Part shown: piece by piece, positions 9,565 through 59,075 of the stretch
Layout: each line of letters starts with the position of its first letter
How positions within the stretch are numbered: position 1 is the first letter of the stretch
Origin: Escherichia phage mistaenkt
Length of the DNA stretch: 64,000 bases
Direction: 5' to 3' (one strand)
Sequence record: MN850587.1
Position numbers and translations under genes: made by a program
The notes under the pieces: generated by a model
Told to the model about the DNA's origin: nothing
Databases searched by the model: none
What the model saw: only the letters and a program-made list of their open reading frames with translations

Positions 9565-9590
9565 AAACGAAAAAGGCTCCCGAAGGAGCC
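9565..9590 (-). terminator. Rho-independent terminator with UUCG-type tetraloop
   Basis: GGCTCC-CGAA-GGAGCC; minus-strand RNA GGCUCC-UUCG-GGAGCC followed by UUUUUCGUUUU. Confidence 0.7.
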
Positions 9591-9602
9591 TGTATCATAA
9601 CC

Positions 9603-10067
9603 TTAACCGAGGACTTTAGCAAGGACATTCGCAGCCATCGTTGAAGCTTTTGCAGCAGCAGCTACGCCAGCCTTGATAGTGCTATCCTTAATGGCAGATA
9701 CCGTTGCAGCATCAGTAAAGAGATACGTGGTAGTTTGCGAACCACTTGTAAAGGAAAGCATAAGAGCAGTTTCCAGATTGAAAGAACGGTACGGAGCACC
9801 GGACTGTACAATTCCTTTAGCACCTAACTCCGAAGCCATACCCATATCATAGATGGTCATCAGGTTTTCTTTATGTGCTGTAGTAGAACCGACACCTTTA
9901 ACGTGTTTTGAAACGTTCAGCAAAGCACGATATTCACGGATATCACCATCCGCTTTTACGTTGACAGCACGAAAGATTTTGCCATCAAAGTTGCTTTTAA
10001 TGATATCACGAACAACCTGTGATTTGTTTGCTGATGCGTCGATAGCTACTGTAATAATGTTTTGCAT
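9603..10067 (-). CDS. Hypothetical protein (154 aa), Ala/Ser/Thr-rich
   Basis: ORF followed by a strong terminator. Confidence 0.6.
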   Translation of the reverse strand: MQNIITVAIDASANKSQVVRDIIKSNFDGKIFRAVNVKADGDIREYRALLNVSKHVKGVGSTTAHKENLMTIYDMGMASELGAKGIVQSGAPYRSFNLETALMLSFTSGSQTTTYLFTDAATVSAIKDSTIKAGVAAAAKASTMAANVLAKVLG

Positions 10068-10079
10068 GATTTCTCTCTC

Positions 10080-10775
10080 TTAGTGTTTGATAAGCATTGT
10101 TTTAATGTCTGGAAGGATTCGTTTAACCTTCTCAACATTCCTTACTGTATCTTCTATAAAGCATACTACATCATAGTACGGAAGAATGCAAGACTGAATC
10201 ATACGAACTTTCAAACTTTCTGCACTGATTCTGTTTGAACCAAAACCACGCATAAAAAGCATGTAGTCAGTCACAATATGCTTGTCAATAAATAAATGAG
10301 TTGGTACACGTTGAGACTCGCCACGAGCAGTTAAAACACCGATTGCAGCACTCTGATGAATGCCTGAAATGATGTTGAAGATATACGTAGGTTGAGCATC
10401 AACTGAGTCAATCAAGTTTGTATATTGTGACAGAGTACCATCTTCTAGATACGTTGAATTTGTCGGCTTATCAAACTTAGTGAGGACACCATCAATATCT
10501 GTTAAAACCATTGGCTTTTTCATATCAAGGTCTTTTGCAACCAAGATTAAACTATCACGTTTCACTGACACTGTTTTACCTGATTGAAGGTCTGTGCATA
10601 ACACTCTTTCAGCCGTGGAATGGAAGTTCTTAAAATCACACTCAACAGCCCTTGCAGTATCTGCAAAGTCTTCTTTCATAAGGTCTGTCCAACTTGCTGC
10701 ACTTAAATCAATATCCAAAGGATTGATATCGTAAGCGTGACAAAATACCTTGTCCAATTGTTTTAATTCGCTCAT
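10080..10775 (-). CDS. Putative HAD-superfamily phosphatase or nucleotidase (start uncertain)
   Basis: Internal MVLTDIDGVL resembles HAD motif I (DxDG); track start 10817 overlaps the upstream gene; ATG at 10775 has an AAGG SD; later Mets at 10679 and 10520 are possible. Confidence 0.45.
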   Translation of the reverse strand: MSELKQLDKVFCHAYDINPLDIDLSAASWTDLMKEDFADTARAVECDFKNFHSTAERVLCTDLQSGKTVSVKRDSLILVAKDLDMKKPMVLTDIDGVLTKFDKPTNSTYLEDGTLSQYTNLIDSVDAQPTYIFNIISGIHQSAAIGVLTARGESQRVPTHLFIDKHIVTDYMLFMRGFGSNRISAESLKVRMIQSCILPYYDVVCFIEDTVRNVEKVKRILPDIKTMLIKH

Positions 10776-11301
10776 GTTTAACCTTTTTAATGTTTGTTGC
10801 AAACTCACATTGAGCAAGCACCTTCATGTTATTGTACACATCTTGAGAGTATTGTCTAGCTTTTGGGATGCGATATGAGTAACCTGCATTGTATGAAGCT
10901 AAGACACGCTGTAAAGAATATTTCCCATTAGGATTACCATGAACCTTAGTCCAGAACTGAAGCTCTTTGTGTGTTTCCTTTGCAGCATAATCGAAGTCTC
11001 TGATAAGTTTCTTCTTAGCTACGTTTGGGTTAACTTTGTTACGCTTTACAACAGTCTTCAAGTGATTCTGGAACAATCCATAATCGTGAGTCTTTTTATT
11101 TTCAAGACGAAGACCTAACTCTGACTCTTGTAAGGCTATAGCGGCTAAGGTTAAACCCCAACCTTTACCCATCTCTTTCTCACCGTAGTGATAAGCTTTA
11201 AGCATGTTTGTTTTCTGACTGATGGATAATTCTGGACAGTCTGAAGCAACTGCCAAATGTGCTGTTAAGAATAAGCACAAACCTAAAATGAACTTCTTCA
11301 T
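10708..11301 (-). CDS. Lytic transglycosylase (SLT domain) with N-terminal signal peptide; candidate secreted endolysin
   Basis: Signal-like MKKFILGLCLFLTAHLAVAS; catalytic-region motifs ALQESELG and DYGLFQ typical of family 1 lytic transglycosylases. Confidence 0.7.
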   Translation of the reverse strand: MKKFILGLCLFLTAHLAVASDCPELSISQKTNMLKAYHYGEKEMGKGWGLTLAAIALQESELGLRLENKKTHDYGLFQNHLKTVVKRNKVNPNVAKKKLIRDFDYAAKETHKELQFWTKVHGNPNGKYSLQRVLASYNAGYSYRIPKARQYSQDVYNNMKVLAQCEFATNIKKVKHERIKTIGQGILSRLRYQSFGY

Positions 11302-11360
11302 TGGTTCTCCTGTTTAGTTCAACATGCAAGCAATTATACACTACTCTGCACAAAACACAA

Positions 11361-11385
11361 ATAAAAAAGGCTGCCGAAGCAGCCC
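11361..11385 (-). terminator. Rho-independent terminator with UUCG-type tetraloop
   Basis: GGCTGC-CGAA-GCAGCC; on minus strand followed by TTTTTTAT. Confidence 0.7.
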
Positions 11386-11401
11386 TTTAAGAATTTACTT
11401 A

Positions 11402-12529
11402 TCAGATTTCACGTTTACGCTGAGAAATCAGTTCACCAGCAGTACCTACAACAACATGCAGTGCTTCAGATTTGCCATCCCACTCTTTGACAACCTGACG
11501 CTGACCATTTACAATTGCTGCAACCTCATAACGTGAAGCTCGCATTTTCATGTCTTGATAATCAGTTGGTACAGATACAACGTCTCGTGGATGTACACGA
11601 ACTTTCAGGATGGTATCACCAGAGAAGCTACGTACATAATCCCAAGCACCAACATGAAGACCTTGAGAGCAAGTTACTGTACGGTCATTATCAACCATCC
11701 ATCGTGGCATTTCTACAACGTTACCCAAATCATTAGGAACTTTGCATGTACGAGAGTCAAACAGCTTACCGCCACGAGTTGTAACTTTCTTCCAACCAAT
11801 GATATAACCTTCTTCATCAATCTCAACATCAAGGTGAGATACAAAGCCCCAAAGTTGTTCTACAGAATCTTTGGATGGGTTTTCCATAAGTTTTTCGAAG
11901 AATGCTACCAGACGTTTAAATCCGTCATCACCAACTTTCATCATGTCCAGAATACGGTCTACCAGAGTTGAACGCATTTGTACAGCACCGTAGTACAGGT
12001 TATCGCCTTTGATAGTGATTGCACCCTGAGTGAAGTTTTCGATAGATTTGCGGATATTCATCAGTTCGAAAGCTTTCTTATACTCGCCACCTACAACAGC
12101 CATCACAATCTCTTTGTAGTTCGGATGGGTAGACTCAACGATTTCAGAATCTGCACCGAAAGTCATGATAACAGAATCACCAGTAATCATGTACTCAATC
12201 TGGTTACCATTCTGCATTGCTTCATGCAGTTGGTTAACAGGTTCTTTCTTCACTGCCTCTTTAACAGCTTTGGCAACTTTGGCAACTTTGGCAACTGGTT
12301 TAGTAGCCGTCTTCTTAGCAGACTTTGCAATCTGTTTCAGAGTCTGTTTAGCTGGCTTGGAAGTTGCTTTCTTAGCACCTCTCAGTGTTGCTTCGTGACG
12401 TTCTACAGCACGACCAACGGAACGTGTAGAAGTATTATACTTCATTGCAATGGCAGTTTTGGTCAGTTTACCTTCCTGAACCATTGCATAAATTTCTGCG
12501 TCGATTTGTGCTTTAGTTTTAGTAGTCAT
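11402..12529 (-). CDS. Putative rIIB-like protein with N-terminal HTH-like segment and Lys/Ala-rich tract (375 aa)
   Basis: Immediately downstream of rIIA, as in T4-type rII loci; KKATSKPAKQTLKQIAKSAKKTATKPVAKVAKVAKAVKEAVKK tract; rIIB identity is by position and recollection, not verified. Confidence 0.45.
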   Translation of the reverse strand: MTTKTKAQIDAEIYAMVQEGKLTKTAIAMKYNTSTRSVGRAVERHEATLRGAKKATSKPAKQTLKQIAKSAKKTATKPVAKVAKVAKAVKEAVKKEPVNQLHEAMQNGNQIEYMITGDSVIMTFGADSEIVESTHPNYKEIVMAVVGGEYKKAFELMNIRKSIENFTQGAITIKGDNLYYGAVQMRSTLVDRILDMMKVGDDGFKRLVAFFEKLMENPSKDSVEQLWGFVSHLDVEIDEEGYIIGWKKVTTRGGKLFDSRTCKVPNDLGNVVEMPRWMVDNDRTVTCSQGLHVGAWDYVRSFSGDTILKVRVHPRDVVSVPTDYQDMKMRASRYEVAAIVNGQRQVVKEWDGKSEALHVVVGTAGELISQRKREI

Positions 12530-12608
12530 CTTATTACTCTCTCTTGTTAGTTAAAATTACTTAGTGGCTCGTATTCTAAGGGGCTTTTCAGCCCCTGTCA
12601 AACTATTT

Positions 12609-14975
12609 TTAATCAAAAGCCTGAGTTCCTTCAGGGATGCACTTAACATCAAACCCTAAGAACTGACCAACTTCAACAGGACTTACTTTATTCCAGTCTA
12701 AGTTAGAAAGCAAGAAGTTTTCTGCTTTACGTGCTTTGAAGTATACGGTCAATTTCTGCTTAATACGTTCTCTTGCGTTGTATATTGCAGAATGTACCTT
12801 ACTCTTCGCTCTTGTCAAACGCTGTAAGTCATGCAGAACGCTTGTAACGTCTTTATAAGCAATCGGTGAAGCAACATAAGCCAGCTTACCAAACATTGCT
12901 TCTACGGCCTCTTCGTTCCCTTCCAAGAAGATACGTTTGCTGTAATCAGCACTATATACATAGCCTCTTGAGCACTTCTTATCACCAAACTGGAACGTTC
13001 TGGCAATAACACCTTTATCAGTGATATCGCAGTTTGAGCTACACCACTCACGAGTTACAAAGCGGTTAAACTCAATCCAGTGAATGTCAGTGATAGAGTC
13101 TTTGAAGACTTGCTGATTCACTTCTAACCAGTCTTCAGGAATTTTCTTCCAGTTTGCTTTACGGAACACATAAACTGGCTGTCCAGTTAAACGTGCCATA
13201 ACCTTTGCAGCACCTTCTGGTGAGCAATTAAAGATTCCACCCAAAACATCATCACCCTGTGCTTTGATATAATACTGAGGTTCTTCAATATCATCAAAGT
13301 TTTCTTTGACTTCTGTATAAGATACACCGTGTTCATGTACAGAAGCTTTGTAGAGTTTTACAACACCACGAGTTACGGTACGCTTCACATAGTGATGCTC
13401 TTTGTCAGACATTTTAACAATCGTCAACAGACTCTTATCAATCATGTGGAGATTAATAAACTGGTCTAACTCTTGTTCATCATAGAACACATAAACAATA
13501 CCGTTGTAGCGACGGAAGTTCGGTTCTTCATTTTCACGGTCACGACAAGCGCCACGAATAATCTGATTGCGTCCTACAGTCTTTTCAGTACCATTTTTGT
13601 TTCGACGGTCATTGATAAGGAACAAATAGTTAGACATTTTGTTCTTACTCATTGCACCGAAGATACTGAAGTTCGCACCTTCCTGAGTGTACATCGCTGA
13701 AGTTGCACGAATCTTATTTTCCAGTTGACTATACTTGAAGTAAGCAACAGGCTCATACAGATTCCCAATAACAGGAATGTGATTACCACTCTTATCAACA
13801 ACCAAAGCTCCTGAATCATCAGTTGCAAACTTTGGAGTGCCATCTTCATTACTCAACTGTCCTTGACGAATCTTTAAAAGTCTCTGTTCAAGGTCTGCTA
13901 AGTTCTGACCATTCCATTCAAGACGTGTAAACACATGCTGGAAGATTTCACGAGAGTTAGCTCGCAAGTCTGCATAAGCCTGTGCAGCGTCTGCCAAGGT
14001 TGGCTCGTTGTCAATACGTTTTACCACATCTTCTACAATCGTTGCAGTAATCTTTTTAACTGCATCTGTAATTGCTTTCTTAGTGGTCTCATTCATCTGC
14101 AATGCTTCACGAGATGCAGCGATAGCCACTGAACCGATTGGCATGTAGATGTTAACAAGGTCTACAGCATTACGGAAGAAGGTAGGCAGTACGTTGGTGA
14201 ACTCTGCACCAAGTAAATCTCCTAAGTCAACCGGATAAGCAATGTTACCCATGACAACGTTGAAGTTTGTCTGGTTATTACTTGAACGCCAGTTCTCTTT
14301 ATACTTCATTGCATCGTAAACACCATCTTCACGAACAATGGTTGTCATCTCACTGAGAATGTCACGATATTCAACGTTGCATTCTGGCTTCAGTTTGAAG
14401 TAAGAGAATACGTTACTCGCTTCTTCATGGAACTTCTGAATACGGTGGCCAGCCACTGCAACACGAACTGCTAAACCATTTGGTTCGGTAGTTGGGTTAG
14501 TAGTCAGTTTAGTAACTTGAGGAATACCATTCTCAAGATATACAGAGTACTTGTTAACCACTCCATCTACGTAGCTGGACACGGTGAATGACTGTGCAAT
14601 TGCAAAAGGTGACTTCGAACCGATACCCATAGCGCCGATGTAGTCGTTTGAGTCATTCTTAGTAGAAGCTCCATAGTTCAGGTACAGAGACATAACCTTC
14701 TCATGAGTCAGGCCAGTACCGAAGTCACGAACTTCAAAGTACGGGTCAAAACGAGTTGGCAGGTGTACACGAAATGGTACATTCTCTTTTCCAGCTTCTT
14801 TGTGAGTATCTACAGCATTACAAGACAACTCACGAATTACAGCACGTTCTTTAAAAGTGTAGACACCTGAACTTAACAGGCTGAACATTTCAGGAGTCAT
14901 CGTGATAGATGCCTGAGAAGTTTCTAATGAAGATGAACTCTTAATCACCTCTGCGTGGTCATTTACCATGCGCAT
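12609..14975 (-). CDS. rIIA: rIIA-like protein with GHKL-type ATPase domain (788 aa)
   Basis: Bergerat-fold motifs IRELSCNAVDT (N box), EVRDFGTGL (DxGxG), GAMGIGSKS (GxxGxG); size and position fit phage rIIA. Confidence 0.75.
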   Translation of the reverse strand: MRMVNDHAEVIKSSSSLETSQASITMTPEMFSLLSSGVYTFKERAVIRELSCNAVDTHKEAGKENVPFRVHLPTRFDPYFEVRDFGTGLTHEKVMSLYLNYGASTKNDSNDYIGAMGIGSKSPFAIAQSFTVSSYVDGVVNKYSVYLENGIPQVTKLTTNPTTEPNGLAVRVAVAGHRIQKFHEEASNVFSYFKLKPECNVEYRDILSEMTTIVREDGVYDAMKYKENWRSSNNQTNFNVVMGNIAYPVDLGDLLGAEFTNVLPTFFRNAVDLVNIYMPIGSVAIAASREALQMNETTKKAITDAVKKITATIVEDVVKRIDNEPTLADAAQAYADLRANSREIFQHVFTRLEWNGQNLADLEQRLLKIRQGQLSNEDGTPKFATDDSGALVVDKSGNHIPVIGNLYEPVAYFKYSQLENKIRATSAMYTQEGANFSIFGAMSKNKMSNYLFLINDRRNKNGTEKTVGRNQIIRGACRDRENEEPNFRRYNGIVYVFYDEQELDQFINLHMIDKSLLTIVKMSDKEHHYVKRTVTRGVVKLYKASVHEHGVSYTEVKENFDDIEEPQYYIKAQGDDVLGGIFNCSPEGAAKVMARLTGQPVYVFRKANWKKIPEDWLEVNQQVFKDSITDIHWIEFNRFVTREWCSSNCDITDKGVIARTFQFGDKKCSRGYVYSADYSKRIFLEGNEEAVEAMFGKLAYVASPIAYKDVTSVLHDLQRLTRAKSKVHSAIYNARERIKQKLTVYFKARKAENFLLSNLDWNKVSPVEVGQFLGFDVKCIPEGTQAFD

Positions 14976-15533: not shown

Positions 15534-15550
15534 AACATTCTCCAGAAATT

Positions 15551-15571
15551 AAAAAGGCTCCCGTAGGAGCC
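15551..15571 (-). terminator. Rho-independent terminator
   Basis: GGCTCC-CGTA-GGAGCC followed on the minus strand by TTTTTAATTT; downstream of the Nampt-like gene. Confidence 0.7.
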
Positions 15572-15586
15572 TCTTATAATACTTAT

Positions 15587-17413
15587 TTAAAGCTGTCTGT
15601 CAATAACATTTCGTACATCACGAAGGTTAACGTAGCCATATGGCTGAGAGTCGCAGAATACCAGCTTCAGAGCACACTGAGGGTTGTCAAGTACGCCTTC
15701 AAACTCTGCAAAGCCAAAGCCATCTACAGCTTCCAGCTTATCACCATCCCACATAGGGACTACACCACCAAAAGCAGACTTCTTCAGACCACTGTCAGTT
15801 TTAGGGTCTTTTGCCAGCATGATTTCTTCACCATCCATCTGTGCAAGAGTTGCTTTAACAGCGAATGCAAAGGTATCACGAGTCAGGTACTGGTAAGTGT
15901 ATGAACCAACACCAAAGACAACGTTAGAACTTGCAAAGCCCTTTTCAGCAAGACGGCTAAGAATCTCTTCAGCACGTTCCAGAGTGATAGAGTCACCATA
16001 GATTAAGCCAATATGTTCATCAAGGACTTTGTAACCTTTAGAGTTTACAGTGCCTCCAAAGATGTTGTACAGAGTTTTGATAGCCCCATCAATTTCTGCT
16101 GTCAGCATACGTTTAACAACAACTTTACCAGTCTTGTAAGTCTCTTTAAGGTTAACTGTATCGGCAACGTTAAAGTCTTCTGCATCAACAATTAACTCAT
16201 AACCTTCAGAGATTAGCCAAGCAGAGAAGCCATAACCCATATCTGTCATGTTACAATTCAAGATTGCATCAAGTAGATAAGTATTGTCAGGGGAAATAGT
16301 TGACATGTGTTTGTAATACATGCTCTTAGCATTTTCCCATTCAATTGCACGATAACCAGTAACAATGTGTACAGGGTCACCTGAATCTGGACGGATTACC
16401 AGTTTACCATCACGGTTCATGATTTCTTCACGGAGTTCTGGAAGAATCTCTGTAACTGTACGCCAGAAGTTGTAAGTATCGGACACAACACTTGCAATAC
16501 CAGTTGGGTAAACATCTACCAGCAGGTGCTTAAAGGTTTGAACCTCACCACGCCAGCGTTTAGCATCCAGCAAGCTATCAGACTGCATAATGTACTGTGA
16601 GTGAATGTCATCTTCTGTCAAGTCTTTCATATTCCATGAAATGTTTGCACACATCACAGAGTGTTCAGTTGCTGGAACAGAGTTACCAATATCACTTACA
16701 GTCATGAACTGACCATATGCACGTTTAGCAGTATACACAGCAGGGAAGCTGTCAGTGCCTTTAAAGCTGGTCAGGTGACCTACAGCGTTGAAAGCATCAT
16801 CTGTAAAGCCAGACATACCACGCATTGCAAAGTCGTGACACTGCCAAGGAAGATGGAAGTCATTGTCACAGGTCTTGTCAGCCCAAGATTTACAGATACG
16901 TTTGTAATGCAGTGCAATAGTTGCAATGGTACAAGCTTTCCAGATTTCAGCAGAGAAAGCATCTTCCAGATAACCAGCTACCCAATGGAAACCTTCAACG
17001 GTATTTTTGAAGATAATCATTGGAACACGCATAGGAACGATTGTACCTTCTTCAACAGAGTACACTGCAACTGGCAGATAACCTAAGTCGTGAAGTTCTT
17101 CCCAATGATGACGCTTGATAGCATCTGCACCAAGAACACCATTCATGATTTCCAAGATTTCATCAACAGCTTCTTTCTTATCACGTTCGAAGAAAGTTGC
17201 ATTCCAATGGTCTACTAAGTAATCTTTAACGAAACGTTGAATACCGAAAGCAACTACACCGTCAGTCTCCAAAGGAGTATTAAACCACTTATCGCCACGG
17301 GGTGTAAGGTTCAGCATCAGATACTGAGTTGCACTCGGATACTGGTAGGTGTGACCAGCTTTATAAGCATCTGCATTAAGACCTGCTGGAACTGCATAGA
17401 TTGATTTAGACAT
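15587..17413 (-). CDS. nadV: Nicotinamide phosphoribosyltransferase family protein (Nampt/NadV-like, 608 aa)
   Basis: N-terminal DAYKAGHTYQYP and C-terminal GLIYGDSI, VVFGVGSY, TRDTFAFAVK, KDPKTDSGLKKS blocks match the Nampt family as recalled; longer than typical Nampt. Confidence 0.8.
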   Translation of the reverse strand: MSKSIYAVPAGLNADAYKAGHTYQYPSATQYLMLNLTPRGDKWFNTPLETDGVVAFGIQRFVKDYLVDHWNATFFERDKKEAVDEILEIMNGVLGADAIKRHHWEELHDLGYLPVAVYSVEEGTIVPMRVPMIIFKNTVEGFHWVAGYLEDAFSAEIWKACTIATIALHYKRICKSWADKTCDNDFHLPWQCHDFAMRGMSGFTDDAFNAVGHLTSFKGTDSFPAVYTAKRAYGQFMTVSDIGNSVPATEHSVMCANISWNMKDLTEDDIHSQYIMQSDSLLDAKRWRGEVQTFKHLLVDVYPTGIASVVSDTYNFWRTVTEILPELREEIMNRDGKLVIRPDSGDPVHIVTGYRAIEWENAKSMYYKHMSTISPDNTYLLDAILNCNMTDMGYGFSAWLISEGYELIVDAEDFNVADTVNLKETYKTGKVVVKRMLTAEIDGAIKTLYNIFGGTVNSKGYKVLDEHIGLIYGDSITLERAEEILSRLAEKGFASSNVVFGVGSYTYQYLTRDTFAFAVKATLAQMDGEEIMLAKDPKTDSGLKKSAFGGVVPMWDGDKLEAVDGFGFAEFEGVLDNPQCALKLVFCDSQPYGYVNLRDVRNVIDRQL

Positions 17414-17457
17414 GTTTTAATCTCTCTCAAAGTGGGGCTTAAAAGCCCCTGATTAAT

Positions 17458-19138: not shown

Positions 19139-19151
19139 TTTCTCTCCAAAA

Positions 19152-19177
19152 TAAAAAGGGAACCTTTTACAGTTCCC
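19152..19177 (-). terminator. Rho-independent terminator
   Basis: GGGAAC-CTTTTACA-GTTCCC followed on the minus strand by TTTTTATTTT. Confidence 0.6.
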
Positions 19178-19190
19178 TAATCATAACTTA

Positions 19191-19502
19191 TTACTGAAGC
19201 TCTTTCAAGACTCTTACAAAATCTTCTTGGCTTACATCCATCTTGAGAGACTCAGATGGCTTGACAAGGTTGTTTGTACATACAATCTTCTTGTGCTTTT
19301 TGTCATAAGTCAGCTTCAGTTGATGCAGTTCTTTATCAGACTCATCCTGAGTGTTGTACATCTCAACAGCTTTTTTAAATGGGGTGTATGCACCACCAAA
19401 AGCTAAAAAGCCTGTACCACAATAATGTGCATTGTGTTTGTCATACATGAACTGGCACAATGCTAAAATCTGAAGTTTACGAGTGTTATAAATCTTGCTC
19501 AT
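19191..19502 (-). CDS. Hypothetical protein (103 aa)
   Basis: ORF preceded by a terminator hairpin. Confidence 0.6.
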   Translation of the reverse strand: MSKIYNTRKLQILALCQFMYDKHNAHYCGTGFLAFGGAYTPFKKAVEMYNTQDESDKELHQLKLTYDKKHKKIVCTNNLVKPSESLKMDVSQEDFVRVLKELQ

Positions 19503-20949: not shown

Positions 20950-21105
20950 TTTAACTTTCCTCTTAATTCACAATAAAGGAGTCCTAAAAAGAACCCTAGT
21001 AAGACAGAACCGATGAATAAACCAATGATGCTCTCTGCCATAACCAACATCCAATAAAAAAAGGTGATGCAAGCCTATCAAGACTTACACCACCTTGTCA
21101 ACTAC

Positions 21106-23247: not shown

Positions 23248-23271
23248 TTGTGCTCCTTTATATACGAAAAA

Positions 23272-23287
23272 GGTCTCCGAAGAGACC
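23272..23287 (-). terminator. Terminator or attenuator hairpin with UUCG-type loop just upstream of nrdD
   Basis: GGTCTC-CGAA-GAGACC followed on the minus strand by TTTTTCGTATATAAAGGAG. Confidence 0.6.
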
Positions 23288-23293
23288 CTTATA

Positions 23294-23500
23294 TTAATTC
23301 TTTTTGAAAATCTTCTCAACAAACTTTTTGAGTTTGCCGCTAATGTCAAGATGGATTTCTAGAATCTCAAAGATTACCCATACTAGCATAGCACCAAACA
23401 AAGCACCTTGTTTGATATCAATAAACAGGTTCACAAAGAAGAAACCGAGTACAATCATCGGTGCATCAACTGTGAAACCTTCCCACAAACGCTTAAGCAT
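23294..23500 (-). CDS. Small membrane protein (68 aa)
   Basis: Two hydrophobic segments (MIVLGFFFVNLFI, ALFGAMLVWVIFEIL). Confidence 0.5.
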   Translation of the reverse strand: MLKRLWEGFTVDAPMIVLGFFFVNLFIDIKQGALFGAMLVWVIFEILEIHLDISGKLKKFVEKIFKKN

Positions 23501-25080: not shown

Positions 25081-25093
25081 GGTTTCTCCAAAA

Positions 25094-25109
25094 GGGGCTT
25101 TACAGCCCC
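25094..25109 (-). terminator. Hairpin terminator or attenuator
   Basis: GGGGCT-TTAC-AGCCCC followed on the minus strand by TTTTGG. Confidence 0.55.
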
Positions 25110-25117
25110 CTGTTTAG

Positions 25118-27352: not shown

Positions 27353-27373
27353 TATTTTAGAGTCCTACAGGTG

Positions 27374-27396
27374 AAAAAGGGTCTCCGAAGAGACCC
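27374..27396 (-). terminator. Rho-independent terminator with UUCG-type loop
   Basis: GGGTCTC-CGAA-GAGACCC followed on the minus strand by TTTTTCACC. Confidence 0.6.
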
Positions 27397-30536: not shown

Positions 30537-30551
30537 TTGTATCTCCAATAC

Positions 30552-30580
30552 GAAAAAGCCCCATACTAAGTACAGGGCTT
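30552..30580 (-). terminator. Hairpin terminator
   Basis: AGCCCC-loop-GGGGCT; minus strand followed by TTTTTCGTATTGGAGAT. Confidence 0.5.
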
Positions 30581-30598
30581 TGTAGTAACTACTGAGAA

Positions 30599-34862: not shown

Positions 34863-34890
34863 TCTCCATACGAAAAAGCCCCCAATTAAG
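34863..34890 (-). terminator. Imperfect hairpin terminator
   Basis: AGCCCCC-AATTAA-GGAGGCT; minus strand followed by TTTTTCGTATGGAGAT. Confidence 0.45.
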
Positions 34891-34913
34891 GAGGCTTTGG
34901 GAAAACAATTCTA

Positions 34914-42667: not shown

Positions 42668-42668
42668 T

Positions 42669-43164: not shown

Positions 43165-43165
43165 T

Positions 43166-44010: not shown

Positions 44011-44011
44011 C

Positions 44012-44823: not shown

Positions 44824-45337
44824 AGGTGAGTTTGGTACTCCTGATGGGATGCCTTGGGAACGTAATCGTGAAGATATGAAAGAGTTTAAAAAGCTGACTC
44901 AAAACCAGCTTGTAATCATGGGTAACGAAACTTTCAAGACTCTTGGACGAAAACCTTTACCAAATCGTGAGAACATGATTCTGACAAACAACCTCCCATA
45001 TTACGGGATAGACTTTGATAATGATGGCTTTGTATTTGCGAAGGTTGACCCAGATTCTTTTGGTGCATTCTTGAAGAAGATTGACAGCCAGATTGATGAA
45101 AACGTATGTGTGATTGGTGGTGCAAACATCTTAAAAGCAGCTTTACCGTTTGCTGATGAAGTTTACCACACAGTTATCTATGAAATTACTAAAGAGCCAA
45201 CTGTGTATCTTCCTGAAGAGGGATTCTTTGAGTATTTACACGAGCCTGAACTCTTTGCTAGAATACAGGCTAAACCTCTGGCTGATAAATCTGGGGTTGT
45301 AAATTTCTATGTTCCACAAGTAAGAGGACGTTTCTGA
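44792..45337 (+). CDS. frd: Dihydrofolate reductase
   Basis: N-terminal MIRLVFASGRKGEFGTPDGMPWE pattern typical of DHFR; immediately upstream of thymidylate synthase; start moved to ATG 44792. Confidence 0.8.
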   Translation: MIRLVFASGRKGEFGTPDGMPWERNREDMKEFKKLTQNQLVIMGNETFKTLGRKPLPNRENMILTNNLPYYGIDFDNDGFVFAKVDPDSFGAFLKKIDSQIDENVCVIGGANILKAALPFADEVYHTVIYEITKEPTVYLPEEGFFEYLHEPELFARIQAKPLADKSGVVNFYVPQVRGRF

Positions 45338-45338
45338 T

Positions 45339-46235: not shown

Positions 46236-46248
46236 TAGATACAAAAAA

Positions 46249-46268
46249 GGCTCCTTTTTACGGGAGCC
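46249..46268. terminator. Bidirectional rho-independent terminator between convergent operons
   Basis: GGCTCC-TTTTTACG-GGAGCC with T-runs on both strands. Confidence 0.75.
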
Positions 46269-46274
46269 TTAAAC

Positions 46275-46649
46275 TTATTTTTTCTTAGCATTTTGAGTGT
46301 TCTGTTCAGTGATTGCTTGCAAAGCCGATACAGACTGTGCTAGGTTATTAACACTGTCAGAGAATTTATCAAGGGTTTTGGTCAACTTGGCGTTTTCACC
46401 CTTTACGTTCTCTAGCTGAACCTTCTGGTTCTCCATGCCTAATTGCAGGAGTTTCATGTCAGACTGTAAATCACGAATAGCTGAATAGTTGCTTTTGTTG
46501 TAACTATCAAGCTGTTGTAACTTTGTCGAAACGGAAACTTCCTGCTTCCCACTAGACACCTGCATTGTAGTGTACATACCAATTACACTGAAGATACCCA
46601 CAACAATTGCACCAATATTATTTTTGAAAGCATCCTCTAACCATCTCAT
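46275..46649 (-). CDS. Membrane-anchored coiled-coil protein (124 aa); possible lysis or fibre-associated function
   Basis: TM segment IGAIVVGIFSVIGMY then a long heptad-like helix; last gene of the late operon. Confidence 0.5.
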   Translation of the reverse strand: MRWLEDAFKNNIGAIVVGIFSVIGMYTTMQVSSGKQEVSVSTKLQQLDSYNKSNYSAIRDLQSDMKLLQLGMENQKVQLENVKGENAKLTKTLDKFSDSVNNLAQSVSALQAITEQNTQNAKKK

Positions 46650-46843
46650 TCTTTCTCCCCTTTAAAGGCTTTTTCCAAGTTATTAACAAATTCATCATCA
46701 ATAGGCGTATCTGTCTTACTCGCAAGGTATCTTGCAAGTCTGAAGAAGGCTTTCTCAATCATGTATTCACTCAGAAGGGAAAGAACGAGTTTCCAGAGGA
46801 AGCTACCCAAGTTTTTTAAGAGGATTGCTAGGATAGTCGGCAT
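46646..46843 (-). CDS. Small hydrophobic protein (65 aa)
   Basis: Hydrophobic N-terminus ILAILLKNLGSFLWKLVLSLL; ATGA overlap with the downstream gene. Confidence 0.5.
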   Translation of the reverse strand: MPTILAILLKNLGSFLWKLVLSLLSEYMIEKAFFRLARYLASKTDTPIDDEFVNNLEKAFKGEKE

Positions 46844-46922
46844 TATGTCACCTCATCAGCCAAGATGGTGAGAATACCTATGAAAATATTAACACCATCT
46901 TAACATTTAGTCAACAAATTGA

Positions 46923-49124: not shown

Positions 49125-49142
49125 TATACAATCCTCTTAAAA

Positions 49143-49158
49143 GGGGCTAAAAAGCCCC
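49143..49158 (-). terminator. Hairpin between the two tail fibre genes
   Basis: GGGGCT-AAAA-AGCCCC; minus strand followed by TTTTAAGAGG. Confidence 0.5.
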
Positions 49159-49166
49159 TGTAATAA

Positions 49167-50315
49167 TCAAGCAGTTCTCTGCCATACATATAGAACAAAT
49201 GATGGCTGTTCAATGTTAAATGCCTGACCAGAACCAGTTGAGCCAGTTGTACCAGAGTGAGAGTGTTCACCTGCACCTGTAACAGTTACAGTAGCAGTAT
49301 GCGAGTGGCTACCAATTGATACAGAGTGGCTATGAGCACCAATCGCTACAGTATGAGTGTGCGCACCAATCGCTACAGTGTGCGTATGGTTGTTAGCGGT
49401 TGTCAGAGTGGCTCTTGGGTCATAGTCTGCACCAACTACTGAAAGTCCCGGATGACTCCCTGGGTCATAACCACGGTTAATCCACGTTGTCTGAGTGAAT
49501 CCAGCAGAACTCGTAGTTTTATTACCATAGTTAAATGATGATGTGGTCTTAGTACCATAATCAAATGTTGTAGTGCTTCTATTCCCATAGTCAAATGAAC
49601 TGATTGAAGCAGTTGCACCATGTGAGTGACCACCACCTGTAACGTACACTGAGTGAGTGTGAGCAGGGATGTTATTAGCTGTCAATGCAGCAGTCTGAGA
49701 ACCAAACGTAGAACCTGCTGGTCTCGAAGCACTATCATAGCCTACAAGTGCTCTACCTCTTGAAACTAGCTCCCAAGTACCTCCACAAATCAGGTAAGTA
49801 GATGGGTTAGCAGCATTCATAGACAAGTGGATAGTACCCACTGGATACGAAGCCTGAACAGCCCTGTATAGACTATTAACTGCTCTTGCTGTAGCATACT
49901 TATCAGCATCTTCATTATATGCGTTAGAGGCTAACCAGTTCTGAACATTACCCAAGCCAACTTGTGATTTAGTTGTATTGTGAGGGTTGTTCTTGTCATT
50001 AATGTGAGCCTGAATAAGTTGATTAACTTCATCAGAAGACATAATCTGTAAGTTCGCTCTTGCTTCAGCTACGTCAACGATATCTGATAAGTTATTTGCA
50101 GCGACAAGCTGTAAAGCGTTTAATACGTTACCTAACTCAACCTGAACCTTTGTAACACCGTGAGGGTTATTTCTCAAGGATGCGTGAGGGTCAAGTAATT
50201 GTTCAAGTGTACATCTTTTGTCTTCAATACCTTGTTTAAGGTGGAAGATATCACTTAGCTCAATTGGTAACGACGCTTGAGGCAAGGCACTAATTTGAAT
50301 TTCACCTACTGCCAT
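49167..50315 (-). CDS. Tail fibre protein paralogue with His-x-His repeat tip
   Basis: 382 aa; HTHSVYV, HSHGAT, HTHTVAIGAHTHTVAIGAHSHSVSIGSHSHTATV repeats; same terminal motif (GSGQAF ... WQRTA) as 46923-49124. Confidence 0.8.
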   Translation of the reverse strand: MAVGEIQISALPQASLPIELSDIFHLKQGIEDKRCTLEQLLDPHASLRNNPHGVTKVQVELGNVLNALQLVAANNLSDIVDVAEARANLQIMSSDEVNQLIQAHINDKNNPHNTTKSQVGLGNVQNWLASNAYNEDADKYATARAVNSLYRAVQASYPVGTIHLSMNAANPSTYLICGGTWELVSRGRALVGYDSASRPAGSTFGSQTAALTANNIPAHTHSVYVTGGGHSHGATASISSFDYGNRSTTTFDYGTKTTSSFNYGNKTTSSAGFTQTTWINRGYDPGSHPGLSVVGADYDPRATLTTANNHTHTVAIGAHTHTVAIGAHSHSVSIGSHSHTATVTVTGAGEHSHSGTTGSTGSGQAFNIEQPSFVLYVWQRTA

Positions 50316-50317
50316 TA

Positions 50318-50632
50318 TTAGCCTCCGATAAATTCATAAGTGTACTGATTAGTTGTGCTTGTTGGAGCAGTACCTGTCACGGTATTAATAAGGTTCCATC
50401 CAGCCGATACTAAATCAGGTTGCTCGGTAGCAAAGCTTCTTACTTCGCCTACAATAGCTGTTGTCCCATTTGCTCTTTCCAACAAATAGTTTAAAATATA
50501 GTTATACCATTGACGACCCATTGGTTCGCCACGAAGTAAACCTGTTGCCTGAATCTCAGGAGGTGGTAACACTTTTAACTGGTTACCATCAGCGTCTACA
50601 TCATCTGTAGCCCATCTTACTGCATCTGCCAT
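50318..50632 (-). CDS. Baseplate or tail fibre-associated protein (104 aa)
   Basis: Position between baseplate and fibre genes. Confidence 0.45.
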
Positions 50633-51489
50633 TATGAACTTCCTTCCTGTTGAGATTTATCTTTTCTGCCTTTGATGATTTGTGCAACTTCAGCCATTAC
50701 ACCATATTCACCACCTGCAACCGTTTCTTTACCGACAATAAAGTTGTCGTTACTGTTATTCGTTCTGCTCACATTCATATAATCTTTTGAAGTGCTTCCA
50801 GCAGTTCTATCAATTCTGAAATAACCGTCTCTTACACCTGCATCTGCTAAACTACCTAACAAGTTAGCCTCAAGAGAACCACCTGTGTTATTCGTTACAA
50901 GACCTCTGTTGTTATCTGTTACGAACCAGTTATCTTTGTCATCAACGATGGCTAAGGCTGAGTCAGCAACCTCTACAGGTGTCCAAGCAGTACCATTCAA
51001 AGTTACATCTCTTAAGATGACTGCTGAACCAATTGTTGTTGCAGCAATCCTTGAAAGTGTGTATGCTGTATCTAGAACGTTATTTCTCGTGTTAACACGA
51101 ATAACAATACCACCAGTCATCGGTGTGATATGTTCAAATACCTGTGAAAAGGTAGCATTGTAAAGTGTCATTACGGCATTTTGAAGAAACGCTGGAGTTG
51201 TGTCAGAACGTCTTAGGAAAATTTGGATATACAGCATTGCACGATATGAATCGTCATCAGCACCAAGAGGTCTAGGGACTTTAATCAAAGCCCCGATATT
51301 ATCTAATTGCTGACCAATAGCTGTACGGATATTACGTTCTGTGTGCATCTGCCAAGTAATATCCTCTAACAATTGTAACTCATCTGTAATAGATTTCAAT
51401 AGACTAGTGTAAATAAACTTTTCTTTGAATTGAGTTACAGTTCTTTCATCCAATGTTTTGTAATAGACGTCTTCAATCTTTTCAAACAT
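50632..51489 (-). CDS. Baseplate wedge protein (285 aa)
   Basis: Position downstream of the J-like gene; translationally coupled. Confidence 0.5.
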
Positions 51490-51491
51490 TG

Positions 51492-52960
51492 TTACTCCTT
51501 AGTGATAGTGTACTGGCTGCTTTCCCATACCGTATACTGGTCACCATCAACTGTGATTCTTGAAGTAGTATACTGGTCATCTGTTGGTGGAACTGCTTGG
51601 TTATTTGAAAGGGCAACTTTAATCTCATTGATTTCAATTCCCTGAATAACATCATAGATGTATCCATAGATTCTGTTAGGAATCACGTCATTACCAACTT
51701 TCAGAGTTCTACCATAATCGTTAATACCCTGTACAATACTGTCATGGATATCTTCTTCAGGGATTGTCAAGCTTTCTTCATCATACAACTCGTAAGTTAC
51801 CTTAACAAAGACATACTTAGGTGTTGGTCTGCTGAAGTAAACGTTATGAGCCAAACCTCCAAGGTCGTATGCAGTACCAAAGATGGAACCATAAGCCCTG
51901 ATACCAGCAGGTTTAGTATCCCAGATAGCTTGAGCAACGTTATCATTCTGACCACCTACAACGACAATCTTGAAAGATTTCGGAGGAATACCATCAGAAG
52001 TTGTTGTCTCAGTGTCGTTCTCAACACCTGAAGCATCTGAAACACCCTGAACTCTCTTGACAGCAGCAACGATAGCGTCTAAAGTACCTACACCAGTAAC
52101 GGTTAAAGACTCTAGGTAACGTTGACGAAGTTCTGTATCAGTTTCTTCATCACGTCCTGTTGTCAGGTCGTATCTGTTAAATACACTATCAAGACCGTCT
52201 ACAGTTGTTTCAATTTCAATCAGTGTTCCTGCCAAAGCTGGAATAGCACCAACCTGTTCAGCAACTACATCGTGGATTGTAGTAATCTTTGTAAAACTTA
52301 AGAAGGTCGTTGCAGTAACAACCATAGGGTTTGTTCTGGCAATAATATCTCCTTCATCTTTATAGATTCTTAGGGATGAGCCATCATTAATAACCTCAGC
52401 TTTAGCAACAATACCACCATTAATAGCATCTGCAAGTTCGTTTAGCAGAGTTGTGATAGTATCCGAAGAAGTAGGCTGATAAGAGAAAACAACGTTATCA
52501 ATAATAATAACATAGTTTGCATCAGTACGTAAAGAGTTAACTTCTAAAACTGCTTCAACACAATAAGATGGTGTCAAGGTGAATGTAGAAACTGGATAGA
52601 AAATATTACCAGCAGTACTTCTCAGTCTTGTTGTTGCAGGAATTGAAGCACCAGTTGTACCAGTAAATTCAGCCTGTCCTCTTGTAGCCTGAGCGACATA
52701 TCTGTAGATTGCGTTTAAGGCTGTGATATCATCTAGGTTGAATCCTTCAGCTTTGTCAATAGTGTTACCATCATAAATCTCAGACAGAACTTCATGGGTA
52801 TCTGCCAAGGCTCTTGCTACTGATGCTAAGAACAGACCTAACTGGCTGTCTTCAGATACATCAAGGTTTGGGGAGATATCTCTTAAAAGTCTTGCTTTGA
52901 TATTATCAAAGATTTCTTGATATCTCAATGTTTGTAATCCTGTTGCGGTTAATCCAGCCA

Positions 52961-52961
<1 letters not shown>
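51492..52961 (-). CDS. Baseplate J-like protein (489 aa)
   Basis: Size, position and N-terminal region typical of baseplate J / gp47-type proteins (inference). Confidence 0.55.
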
Positions 52962-56117
<3,156 letters not shown>

Positions 56118-56118
<1 letters not shown>

Positions 56119-58358
56119 TATTCTTCCTCTGGGTAACTTGAGTTAAGAAGGATATCTTCTTGGTTCTTGTCCATGATATCAACCGTCTTAGTAGCAATCT
56201 GCTTACCATCCAGATTGAATGAAACATTCAGAGTCTGTCTAGTCTGCATAGGGAAACCAGAAGGTGTCATCATCATTGGGGTTTGGTTGAACTTCGTTGC
56301 AAAGTTATTTAAAGACTCTGACAAGTTGTTCATGATAATATCCCAATTGGACATTCCATTATCAACAAAGCTGCGATTGCCTTGAGCATCTACAGAATAT
56401 TGTGCAAACTGTAGCTGTCCATTCTGGTCAAAGAACATTGGACGTTTCGGGTTGGTAATGCTTGCTACGGCATCTTCAAAAGGTTTTGGAAGGTTTACTT
56501 CACTGAATCTACCATTATTCTTTCTGTCTGTAGAGCCAGATAGCATTAATGATGAACCAACTGTACCAAGAGCCATTCTTGTTGCTGATACTCCTGCAAC
56601 ACCTGCTGCTTCAGATGCGGCTGCTGCACCACCTAAACCAAACTTCTTCATGATTTTTGCAAAGATACCTTCTTCAAAGATACTCTTGACAAATGCTACA
56701 GTACCGCCAAAGATTTTTGCAACCTTCGTGATAGCGGCAATTGCAACACCAATCATAGCAAAGGTTGAAACTAGTTCAGCAGAATCCTTGATAAGTTTCT
56801 GTTGACTTGCATCCAAATCCTTGTACCATGCCATTGCAGAGTAATATAGTGAAGATGTTCTATACATGATATCTGTTACGAAGTCAAGTAAGTTACCAGC
56901 ACCTTTTAACAGGTAACCAATCACTGTACCGAGTGCTTCAGCAGTACCCATAGAACCTTGTAAGAACATTGCAATGGATTGTGAAAGCTGTGAAATACCG
57001 TCGCTAGAGTTGTTAAACAATGCAACTAACATGTTATCCCACATAGACTTTGCTTGACCCATTGAGGTAGCTGTCTGCTTAGATACGGCATTCATACCAC
57101 CTGCTGCCTGTACCAACTCAGCCATCTTTTCAGATACCTTTGGAAGTACATCTTCAGCAAGGAGTTTACCGTCCTTCATCATCTTATCAAGTTCTTGTGG
57201 TGTCTTACCGATAGCGTCAGCAAATAGCTGTACAGCACCTGCCAAACGGTCACCTAACTGACCACGGAGTTCTTCAGCCTGAATCTTACCCTTAGAAGCC
57301 ATCTGCTGGAAAGCAACCATGATACCTTTCAGGTCTTCGTCTGTTGCACCCCTGATACGGGAGAACATCGCAGCGTTCTTATAGAACTCCTGAGTTCCTT
57401 GGAATCCAAGAGCAGGTTGAGCACCAGCAGCAAAGTTTGCGTATTGCTTCATGGTCGCTGTGTAGTTCTGTCCAATCTGATGAGCGAACGATGCAGCGAA
57501 CATTCTAGCTTGCTGTGTATCTGCTCCGAAGATAGCTGTTGAGGCTAACTGTGCAGACTGTCTTTTAACACCTGCATCAATTGTCTTCTGAGCCAATTCT
57601 AAGGCTGCATAAGCTGAAACAAAACCACCAATCATCTGACGTAGAGATGAGTTAGCTCTTTCCTGAAGCCAAGCTGATTCTCTGACTGACTTGAGTCTAG
57701 CATTTTCTGCAATAACCCAACGCTTGGTAACGTCAATGAGCTTCTTGACTTCCATCTCATATTCACCGACTTTACCAGTTCCCTTATATTTGTTATAAAG
57801 ACCTTGCAGGTTTCCTCTGAAGGAAGCTGCCATTTGGTTACCTTGTCCACCAATAGTTTCAAGGCGACGTGTCAGACCAGAATAGAAGTTGTTGTTAAAC
57901 ATTCTTTCCATCTGTCTCTGAGCAATATCAGGTCTTGGAGGTCTTGGGTTACCACTTCCACCAGTAGGAGGGAAACCAGTACCACCCTTTCTACCACCAC
58001 GAACAGTGACTTTTCCATCAACTTTCATAGCGTCTCTTAAAGCTTTATTAATCTCCTTGGCAGTTTTTCTACCTTGAGTTTCCAGTCTTTTAAGAGATTT
58101 TACACCTTGTGAATCAAGGTTAAGGGAGTTGTTGAGTGCTTTATTGATTCTGCCCGAAGCAGTCTGAGCGTTTTTTACAATTCTGTTTAATGCTTCTTGT
58201 GAAGACTTATTAGGTTTCACGTCAAAGGCTTTGTTAATATTACGTTCGATTCGTTGAGCAGACTGCATAGCCATCTTTTCAACTCTCTGCAAACCTTTAA
58301 CAACCTTTTCACTGAAACCCAACTCCACAATAAAGCTATCAACTGTATATTGTGCCAT
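56118..58358 (-). CDS. Tail tape measure protein
   Basis: 746 aa, Ala/Gly/Gln-rich helical composition, hydrophobic central segments, between chaperone pair and baseplate genes. Confidence 0.75.
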
Positions 58359-58597
58359 TAAATTTTACCTGCCCTTCTAAGTTCGTTATAAGCAATTTCT
58401 TCTTTGTATGACCTCTGGATTTCTAAATACTGTCGCAGAGATAATAAATCAGAGAAAGTCATTGAGAAGAGTTGGTCGAGTGTTTCTTTACACCCTTCCA
58501 TACCGTAAATAGCAAGCACAAATTTCATCTCATCTGCTTCTTCATAAGTTGCTGCTACAGCCCCATCAGTCAATGGGGTCTGCATAGCACTACTCAT
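58358..58597 (-). CDS. Tail assembly chaperone (second ORF of the pair)
   Basis: Small acidic protein directly upstream of tape measure. Confidence 0.45.
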   Translation of the reverse strand: MSSAMQTPLTDGAVAATYEEADEMKFVLAIYGMEGCKETLDQLFSMTFSDLLSLRQYLEIQRSYKEEIAYNELRRAGKI

Positions 58598-58599
58598 GC

Positions 58600-59010
58600 T
58601 TACTGAGAAGTTAGGCTTTTGAAAATGCTTGCTTCGAAAAAACTTCCGAAATTAGTCTCCAGAGCAAATGCTAAGAAGTCAATAAATTCACCGTAGTTTG
58701 CTTGGAAGTATTTATCTACGTTTAGAGGGAAGTCATCTACAGTTGCACCTTGGAATAACAGAGCAGCCATTGAATCAATATCGAGTTCATCAATACGGTC
58801 AAAGCAAGCCTCTACTAATTCTTTAAAAGGCACTGCTGTTACACTTTCTTCACCATCTTTCTGCTCTTTCCCAGATAAACTTGAAAACATCTGAGCAATT
58901 GTCGGTACAACAACTTTACCAAGTTTCATCGACATTTTAATACCATCTCTTGCACCTAGCAGGACAATATTCACTTTCTTACCATTAATAATTTTTGATT
59001 CTGTCTTCAT
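58600..59010 (-). CDS. Tail assembly chaperone (first ORF of the pair)
   Basis: 136 aa between tube and tape measure genes. Confidence 0.5.
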   Translation of the reverse strand: MKTESKIINGKKVNIVLLGARDGIKMSMKLGKVVVPTIAQMFSSLSGKEQKDGEESVTAVPFKELVEACFDRIDELDIDSMAALLFQGATVDDFPLNVDKYFQANYGEFIDFLAFALETNFGSFFEASIFKSLTSQ

Positions 59011-59043
59011 TGTGATTCCTTAAATTTCTTAGGTTCTATAAAC

Positions 59044-59075
59044 GAAAAAAGGGAAGACCTTTTACAGTCTCCCCC
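59044..59075 (-). terminator. Imperfect hairpin terminator or attenuator after the tail tube gene
   Basis: GGGAAGAC-CTTTTACA-GTCTCCC; minus strand followed by TTTTTTCGTTTAT. Confidence 0.5.

Follow-up and report, generated by a model that had tools for sequence, protein, structure and literature searches.

Rho-independent terminators of Felix O1-like phages were listed with the Felix O1 genome (Table 2 of Whichard et al. 2010, Viruses 2:710, PMC3185647), in a paper that leaves undecided whether read-through or secondary promoters carry transcription past them and is silent on loops, on promoter overlap and on hairpins lacking a U-tract. In the T4-like phages RB49, phi1, PST and nt-1, cassettes called PeSLs combine a sigma-70-type promoter with a stem-loop; activity shown for both promoter and terminator, cassette recombination and mini-circles belong to what defines them, and they have been proposed as junctions for the swapping and insertion of small genes (Arbiol et al. 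2010, PMC2839356; Comeau et al. 2014, PMC4122927). Here we analyse the intergenic hairpins of Escherichia phage mistaenkt (record MN850587.1) over a stretch of 64,000 nt, referred to as the window, whose positions are used throughout. A sequence-only reading had taken many of these hairpins for minus-strand terminators with UUCG or CGAA loops, a conserved CTTTTTCGTWT tail and a coordinated terminator/leader design. Hairpins of the C(UUCG)G type were reportedly described by Tuerk and colleagues in T4 intercistronic regions, and d'Aubenton Carafa and colleagues are said to have described them in E. coli terminators. In PMC3972237, Tuerk 1988 and d'Aubenton Carafa 1990 are cited for UUCG-capped hairpins as T4 and terminator elements. 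Usable transcriptome or 3'-end data for Felix O1-like phages did not turn up in a literature search. Window positions 9000-13000 match 258 phage records, the best matches being Salmonella phage PC79-13 at 96.4% and Escherichia phage SUSP2, itself a Suspvirus, at 95.4%; the window phage is a Suspvirus (Ounavirinae, Felix O1-like).

Predicted terminators and their UNCG caps

By the SUSP2 annotation, 1-36200 and 46275-64000 are minus-strand gene blocks and 36400-46235 is a plus-strand one, and GC skew is consistent with this. Every hairpin that had been cited is present on the minus strand; since a minus-strand gene block covers them, this is the coding strand there. Between genes, a stop codon, a hairpin, a U-run, a Shine-Dalgarno sequence (SD) and an ATG follow one another in compact cassettes, and the predicted terminators stand directly 3' of stop codons on the sense strand (Table 1). 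At 13 sites (410, 7241, 9574, 11365, 15552, 19157, 21061, 23269, 27379, 30555, 34875, 46247 in the minus direction, and 59048) the stem is followed on the sense strand by a run of 4-7 U, with at least 4 U in the first 6 nt, and all 13 gave a sense-orientation d-score between +20 and +51 (a score of the d'Aubenton-Carafa type). Every site folds as drawn, with z-scores of -2.1 to -7.4, into a GC-rich stem of ~5-17 bp with a loop of 3-8 nt and a free energy (dG) of -12 to -26 kcal/mol. Window orthologues appear in the Felix O1 list as t2, t5, t13, t64, t76, t79/80, t104, t111 and t116 (PMC3185647), and terminators are annotated at orthologous sites in KhF2 (KT184314) and Mordin (NC_041977). Stems, loops, U-runs, placement after stop codons, positive d-scores and published or annotated orthologues together bear out the reading as intrinsic terminators, and the flagged hairpins are ordinary predicted terminators of Felix O1-like phages, already published. 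The best overall explanation, to which we assign a probability of about 0.8, would be intrinsic terminators with a lineage-specific tail, many of the hairpins belonging to composite promoter cassettes.

Four of the sites carry a C(UUCG)G loop (9574-9591, 11365-11388, 23269-23290 and 27379-27396), and a fifth UNCG member with the same C-G closing pair, C(UACG)G at 15552-15575, had been missed. The CGAA loops are merely the plus-strand reading of the identical loops. All five UNCG hairpins of the window are sense-oriented; dinucleotide shuffles gave 0.07 on average and never more than 1. Watson-Crick tetraloop hairpins with a stem of 5 bp or more, including 4 or more GC pairs, are found 24 times over the two strands, where dinucleotide shuffles give 5.8 +/- 3.5. 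A covariance-model scan of the whole window against Rfam at gathering scores matched no family. Hairpins at 28005, 29433, 31891, 34000, 54906 and 55871 were set aside because they lie within coding sequence.

For comparison we used SUSP2, M719, KhF2, LF110, S.Kent and Mordin as close relatives and Erwinia phage Rouille as a distant genome. In these six relatives (78-95% identity) the stems are nearly constant and vary less than the neighbouring coding sequence, with few compensatory changes, such as those of M719 and KhF2 in the 21061 stem. Because the stems hardly vary, covariation among close relatives is uninformative and the distant Rouille was needed; its rIIB protein is 57% identical to that of the window. 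Upstream of nrdA and of the spanin gene, and downstream of the NAMPT gene, Rouille carries syntenic C(UUCG)G terminators with the same loop and closing pair on a different stem (GGACTC/GAGTCC). Upstream of nrdA the stem reads GAGCCUC/GAGGCUC in KhF2 and LF110 and GGGACUC/GAGUCC in Rouille, changes that compensate relative to the window. We then took 12 distinct UNCG hairpins from eight genomes, a set made up partly of paralogues located by the hairpin pattern: pairing holds in 98.8% of stem cells, both partners are exchanged in five of seven pairs, neither the loop nor the C-G pair that closes it ever varies, and none of 500 shuffles reaches the observed values. The loop and closing pair are thus kept over compensating stems in Rouille, which supports a function at the RNA level. 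As a whole, the comparative evidence suggests that RNA structure is under selection and that stems are homogenised within a genome.

Rouille also holds a dispersed repeat, (A)GGGACTC-TTCG-GAGTCC(T)TTTT, identical at nine intergenic sites over 40 kb, which suggests that terminators evolve in concert within a genome. At the hairpin 46247-46270 the loop is reverse-complemented relative to Mordin, S.Kent, LF110 and KhF2 (TTTTTAC vs CGTAAAAA) and the palindromic stem is unchanged; it looks as if this hairpin was flipped through recombination between its own arms.

Table 1. Predicted terminators, other hairpins, candidate promoters and early cassettes in the window (elements 5' to 3' on the strand given; dG in kcal/mol; d, d-score)
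Feature	Position	Strand	Context	Elements	Scores	Listed or annotated orthologues
Terminator 7241	7230..7282	-	after phosphatase gene	17-bp stem then UUUUUCAUUUU	dG -25.8, z -7.4	Felix O1 t13
Terminator 9574	9565..9591	-	between hypothetical gene (9603-10067) and Rz-like spanin gene (9203-9550)	AGGCUCC-UUCG-GGAGCCU then UUUUUCGUUUU	dG -15.3, z -3.4, d +41	Felix O1 t5; KhF2, Mordin
Terminator 11365	11355..11388	-	after rIIB	AAAGGGCUGC-UUCG-GCAGCCUUUU then UUAUUUG	dG -15.1, d +48	Felix O1 t2
Terminator 15552	15542..15575	-	after NAMPT gene	AAGAGGCUCC-UACG-GGAGCCUUUU	dG -17.0, z -4.2, d +45	
Terminator 19157	within 19147..19208	-	abuts promoter 19180-19208	AGGGAACU-GUAAAA-GGUUCCCU then UUUUUAUUUU		
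Terminator 21061	21050..21096	-	after nrdD	16-bp stem then U7	dG -23.6, z -5.5	
Terminator 23269	within 23262..23319	-	upstream of nrdD, whose SD and ATG come next	AAGGGUCUC-UUCG-GAGACCUUU then UUCGUAU		Felix O1 t116; KhF2, XTG1, Mordin
Terminator 27379	27369..27396	-	upstream of nrdA	GGGUCUC-UUCG-GAGACCC then UUUUUCACC		
Terminator 30555	30548..30581	-	upstream of exonuclease gene	12-bp stem then UUUUUCGUAU, SD		Felix O1 t104
Terminator 34875	34868..34898	-	upstream of deoxynucleoside monophosphate (dNMP) kinase gene	AAAGCCUCC-UUAAUU-GGGGGCUUU then UUCGUAU		
Terminator 46247	46247..46270	both	separates convergent thymidylate synthase (+) and holin (-) genes		strong minus (d +30), weak plus (d -4)	
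Terminator 59048	59040..59077	-	after tail sheath/tube genes, before tail chaperone genes	12-bp stem then UUUUUUCGUUU		Felix O1 t64; Mordin
Hairpin 12579	12579-12596	-	rIIA/rIIB gap	AGGGGCU-GAAA-AGCCCCU	z -4.7, d only +6	
Hairpin 17434	17434..17449	-	between prs and NAMPT genes	GGGGCU-UUUA-AGCCCC, no U-tract	d -16	
Hairpin 25092	25092..25111	-	after nrdA	AGGGGGCU-GUAA-AGCCCCUU then UUGGAG; four U	d +21	
Hairpin 49142	49142..49159	-	between two tail/fibre genes	AGGGGCU-UUUU-AGCCCCU then UUUAAGAGG; four U	d +22	Felix O1 t76
Promoter 9594	9594..9622	-	-10 ends 2 nt before terminator 9574 stem	TTGCTA-17-TATGAT		
Promoter 12573	12573..12601	-	rIIA/rIIB gap; hairpin fills spacer	TTGACA-17-TAGAAT	11/12 match	
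Promoter 15576	15576..15603	-	-10 ends 3 nt before GC core of terminator 15552	TTGACA-16-TATTAT	11/12 match	
Promoter 19180	19180-19208	-	abuts terminator 19157	TTGAAA-17-TATGAT; -35/-10 conserved, spacer variable		
Promoter 23291	23291-23319	-	abuts terminator 23269	TTGAGA-17-TAATAT		
First early promoter	6888-6860	-		TTGACC-17-TAGTAT		
Early cassettes (six)	2579-2652, 3511-3594, 4334-4418, 5399-5487, 6001-6087, 6346-6430	-				

The CGTWT tail and hairpins lacking a full U-tract

As had been noticed, the tail CTTTTTCGTWT recurs after terminator T-runs and is followed by SD and ATG within ~5-35 nt. Four of its five exact copies come after minus-strand terminator stems (9565, 23262, 30548 and 34868), the fifth lies on the plus strand within a gene (62940), and the copy at 59040 has one mismatch. 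When up to one mismatch is allowed, 12 matches are seen where 3.8 +/- 2.0 are expected, and none of 100 shuffles reaches 12. The proposal that the tail is a conserved element fails, as the sites are alike only within the window genome and SUSP2, which has the same five CG tails; orthologues diverge, and CG counts in other genomes are low. CG follows the T-run in 5/14 terminators of the window, 3/17 of M719, 1/16 of Mordin, 1/14 of S.Kent, 0/17 of KhF2 and 0/16 of LF110. The orthologous positions read CA (9574), TG or AG then C (23269), AT (34875) and TG or GT (59048); the 34875 tail, for example, is AUUAU in M719, S.Kent and Mordin and CGUAU in SUSP2. Only the terminator upstream of the exonuclease gene (30555) keeps CGT(A/T)T widely, Rouille included despite swapped stem arms. 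What is general to the terminators is U5-6, then one or two non-U, then U-W-U. Since the orthologue alignments and the per-genome CG counts differ in this way, the tail is not a conserved signal; it is, as these alignments read, a lineage-specific variant of an interrupted U-tract that is frequent in the SUSP2 lineage. No function of the CGTWT tail by itself appears to be demonstrable.

Other hairpins had been described as lacking a U-tract and as possible processing or attenuation sites. The lack holds for 12579 and 17434; the hairpin at 25092-25111 is not strictly of that kind because UUUU follows it. These hairpins are a mixed group, in which one forms the spacer of a promoter, others are weak terminators and one is simply an intercistronic hairpin. 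The U-run falls short of four in the first six nt at 17434, 12579, 757, 1078, 1673 and 39612 and is borderline, with four U, at 25092 and 49142; d-scores are ~0 to +6 at 2906 and 12579 and negative at 17434, 757, 1078, 1673 and 39612. The hairpin at 12579-12596 makes up nearly the whole 17-nt spacer of the promoter in the rIIA/rIIB gap, and at 17434-17449 the stem is invariant and the loop variable among relatives. The hairpin at 25092-25111 may act as a weak terminator or attenuator, and that at 49142-49159 is probably a weak terminator. Downstream of nrdA, three lineages (the window; S.Kent/Mordin; Rouille) each have a hairpin of unrelated sequence at the same site, none with a good U-tract.

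A further hairpin without a U-tract, GGGGAGG-GAGA/AAUGA-CUUCCCC, is present in three minus-strand copies (757-774, 1078-1098 and 1673-1690), each with TATCAAC in front of it and the common leader (described below) behind it; KhF2 and LF110 carry a compensating variant, GGGAGG...CCTCCC. These copies are a putative second type of early intergenic cassette, one without an obvious promoter.

Candidate promoters at the hairpins and the early cassettes

Four terminators have a sigma-70-like -10 box that ends 1-3 nt before the stem (Table 1), where 0.13-0.15 would be expected; the Poisson probability is 1e-5, and none of 2000 local shuffles reaches four. At these abutting promoters the -35 and -10 hexamers stay promoter-like in relatives and the spacers drift: the -10 box at 9594 appears as TATGAT, TAAGAT, TAATAT or TATTAT, always keeping TAnnAT, and KhF2 has TTGACA-16-TATGAT at the 15576 site. 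In the rIIA/rIIB gap (12573-12601) the promoter and stem are conserved in relatives and the loop is variable. Overall, a stem-loop with z <= -1.9 accompanies 21 of the 23 promoter-like sites that lie between genes, and at 12 of them its arms straddle the -10 box. The idea of a coordinated terminator/leader design therefore stands as far as the compact cassettes are concerned and falls as regards coordination through the CGTAT tail; what we see instead are sigma-70-type promoters abutting or straddling hairpins.

Each of the six early cassettes combines TTTACA, a spacer of 17-18 nt and TAnnnT; GGGG...CCCC arms lie to either side of the -10 box, and the leader CCTAAACTGGAGA and an ATG come next. 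Across 18-20 copies from seven genomes, TTTACA and the -10 positions T1, A2 and T6 are invariant and the middle is variable, and the stems are 100% paired, with one compensatory pair, from Rouille. The 13-nt leader itself has 14 exact copies on the minus strand in 700-6830, where 0.11 would be expected by chance; they lie a few nt before the ATG of small early genes, the GGAG within them being the Shine-Dalgarno sequence, and the Mordin record annotates the element as a 14-nt repeat_region. A shared leader could serve uniform translation or be a common shut-off target for early mRNAs. T4 RegB cuts GGAG. The Mordin record labels the orthologue of the gene at 10708-11301 (minus strand) "similar to T4 RegB"; this lead was dropped, and the label is doubtful, because Pfam gives only a sub-threshold match to SLT transglycosylase (E = 5e-4, 20 bits, cut-off 21.3).

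Several other elements were seen around these cassettes. The 13-mer AGTTGACAAGGTG, which contains TTGACA, opens both the 21061 stem (21096-21108) and the 39612 hairpin (39600-39612); TTGACA at these two stems was rejected as a promoter since no usable -10 box lies at 16-18 nt. A non-coding C-rich tract, CCCATCTCCCCCTCTTACTCCCCCTCTCCCC, stands at 7010-7050 (minus strand), just upstream of the first early promoter. In the same non-coding region, the ~480-nt stretch after the 7241 terminator, the repeat TCATTTT-N5-T(G/T)TGCAG(G) has four spaced copies (7061-7243, minus strand), to which the one-mismatch tail matches at 7121 and 7233 belong; weaker copies are at 11346-11364 and 11273-11291, most copies are preceded by a T or A run, and the corresponding gap in Rouille (26757-27215 of the examined sequence) holds four similar copies. 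These repeats could be iterons or regulator-binding sites.

Gene content beside the cassettes differs among relatives. At the site orthologous to 9551-9602, SUSP2 and M719 have one or two extra small open reading frames (ORFs) after the terminator-plus-SD cassette, and at the site orthologous to 15534-15586 further relatives likewise carry extra small ORFs; the inserted ORFs reuse the Shine-Dalgarno sequence of the cassette and are missing from the window phage. As they stand directly behind cassettes, the cassettes look like preferred insertion points for small ORFs.

Weighing the readings against known systems

If the hairpins are intrinsic terminators, host RNA polymerase would read them, without additional factors, on the coding strand of the phage. 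The nascent RNA would fold into a GC-rich stem of 6-17 bp, given an extra-stable C(UNCG)G cap in five cases, and the 4-7 U behind it would weaken the RNA:DNA hybrid so that the transcript is released. Hybrid weakening by a U-run followed by release is established for intrinsic termination. The terminators would split the long minus-strand gene blocks into units and would probably also shield mRNA 3' ends. At the abutting -10 boxes, a start ~7 nt downstream would fall in the 5' arm, so that the new transcript would lack the full terminator hairpin, and transcripts arriving from upstream would stop at the terminator; at other promoters the stem-loop fills the spacer or straddles the -10 box. A wider proposal, which we offer as tentative, is that early and middle transcription in Ounavirinae may run through self-insulating promoter/terminator cassettes, in which a capped terminator would stop incoming polymerases, a promoter touching the stem would restart within the 5' arm, recombination would keep the stems uniform, and the modules would double as insertion points for small genes.

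Several points weigh against this account. The covariation comes largely from one distant genome, Rouille, and from paralogues that were partly picked as hairpins, and Rouille does not generally show the layout with an abutting promoter. Termination, how efficient it would be and where transcripts would start are predictions from sequence. A transcript started in the 5' arm could still form a UUCG-capped mini-hairpin of 4-5 bp, so that escape is not assured. Finally, a promoter abuts at only 4 of the 13 terminator sites, and the remaining sites would have to rely on read-through or on promoters elsewhere.

Other explanations fit parts of the data. Chance palindromes in AT-rich intergenic DNA are hardly a credible account of the hairpins: weak terminator-like matches are generally abundant in shuffled sequence, nothing further speaks for this account, and both the shuffle controls and the conservation in seven related genomes refute it. 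We think it rather unlikely that the hairpins are primarily modules at the DNA level, that is, dispersed repeats homogenised by recombination that serve as junctions for small-gene swaps, with termination secondary. Such modules would suit the identical reuse of stems within a genome (the window has three GGCTCC and two GGTCTC stems, and 40 kb of Rouille hold nine copies of GGACTC-UUCG-GAGTCC), the small ORFs directly behind terminator-plus-SD cassettes in some relatives, the loop at 46247 flipped between lineages and the early region with its fourteen identical 13-nt leaders. However, the UNCG loops are all sense-oriented, and an invariant loop and closing pair over compensating stems is the pattern of RNA selection and not that of a recombination site.

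A role mainly as barriers to 3'-exonucleases or as processing signposts, which would set mRNA half-lives and gene-dose ratios without stopping polymerase, is conceivable but rather unlikely. It would fit above all the hairpins at 17434, 12579 and 757/1078/1673, with no proper U-tract. Several conserved hairpins indeed combine the lack of a U-tract with negative d-scores, a hairpin after nrdA is kept in three lineages despite unrelated sequences and the want of a good U-tract, and hairpins are placed 5-10 nt ahead of the next SD; yet the 13 main terminator sites have their U-runs right behind the stem and positive d-scores in the sense direction, and a barrier role and termination are mutually compatible. 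It is improbable that the CGTWT tail is functional in itself, be it as a pyrimidine-then-G pause step raising termination efficiency or as a site for binding or cleavage by a phage factor. The tail does follow terminators five times in the window and in SUSP2 and three times in M719, and it is kept upstream of the exonuclease gene in five genomes as well as in the distant Rouille, whose stem arms are swapped. The pause consensus is G-10/Y-1/G+1, and by our own reading of the sequence a G stands at -10 relative to the tail C in three of five sites; with only three, we rejected the tail as a consensus pause site and retained it as a rival of low probability. Against a function of the tail, four of its five sites have orthologues with CA, TG, AT or GC instead, CG after the T-run is absent from KhF2 and LF110 and found once each in S.Kent and Mordin, and nine further terminators of the window have no CG tail.

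Returning to the terminator reading, the finding as first stated adds little, since terminators and UUCG loops are textbook matter and were listed for Felix O1 in 2010. It is useful to know that the "CGTAT tail" should not be taken as a conserved motif, that lineage-specific stems compensate beneath an invariant C(UUCG)G cap and that several terminators touch sigma-70-type promoters, the last being a more interesting point than the tail. If the self-insulating cassettes are real, they would extend the PeSL principle beyond T4-like phages, and as composite elements they would answer the question left by the Felix O1 paper of how transcription continues past many terminators. Should start-site mapping confirm the promoter contact, this would explain expression right behind strong terminators in phages without an RNA polymerase of their own, and compact, portable terminator/promoter parts would become available.

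In comparison with Felix O1, KhF2 and Mordin, the terminators occupy the same syntenic sites with near-identical sequences (t5 ggctccttcgggagcc, t2 ggctgcttcggcggcc, t116 ggtctcttcggagacc, t104 gccctgtacttagtatggggc). The window phage differs from Felix O1 in belonging to another genus (Suspvirus), in its stem upstream of nrdA and in having CG tails where Felix O1-type phages have CA, AG or TG. With the C(UUCG)G hairpins of T4 and E. coli, those of the window share the UNCG loop, the C-G closing pair, a short GC stem, a place on the sense strand between genes and often a U-run next to the stem; there is no difference in kind. In the window phage, one and the same capped stem recurs as a dispersed repeat, with a lineage-specific sequence. 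The PeSLs belong to phages outside the subfamily of the window phage (Ounavirinae). In addition, four predicted window cassettes (9594, 15576, 19180 and 23291) put a canonical U-run terminator just after the -10 box and not over it. The likeness lies in sigma-70-type -35 and -10 boxes that stand 16-18 nt apart between genes, in a polyG/polyC stem-loop between -35 and -10 or over -10, in SD and ATG at the 3' end of cassettes repeated between small genes of unknown function, and in gene content that varies beside the cassettes in the window phage and its relatives too. By this analogy, the promoter/hairpin layout resembles the PeSL cassettes of T4-like phages and would be a modest extension of them to Ounavirinae.

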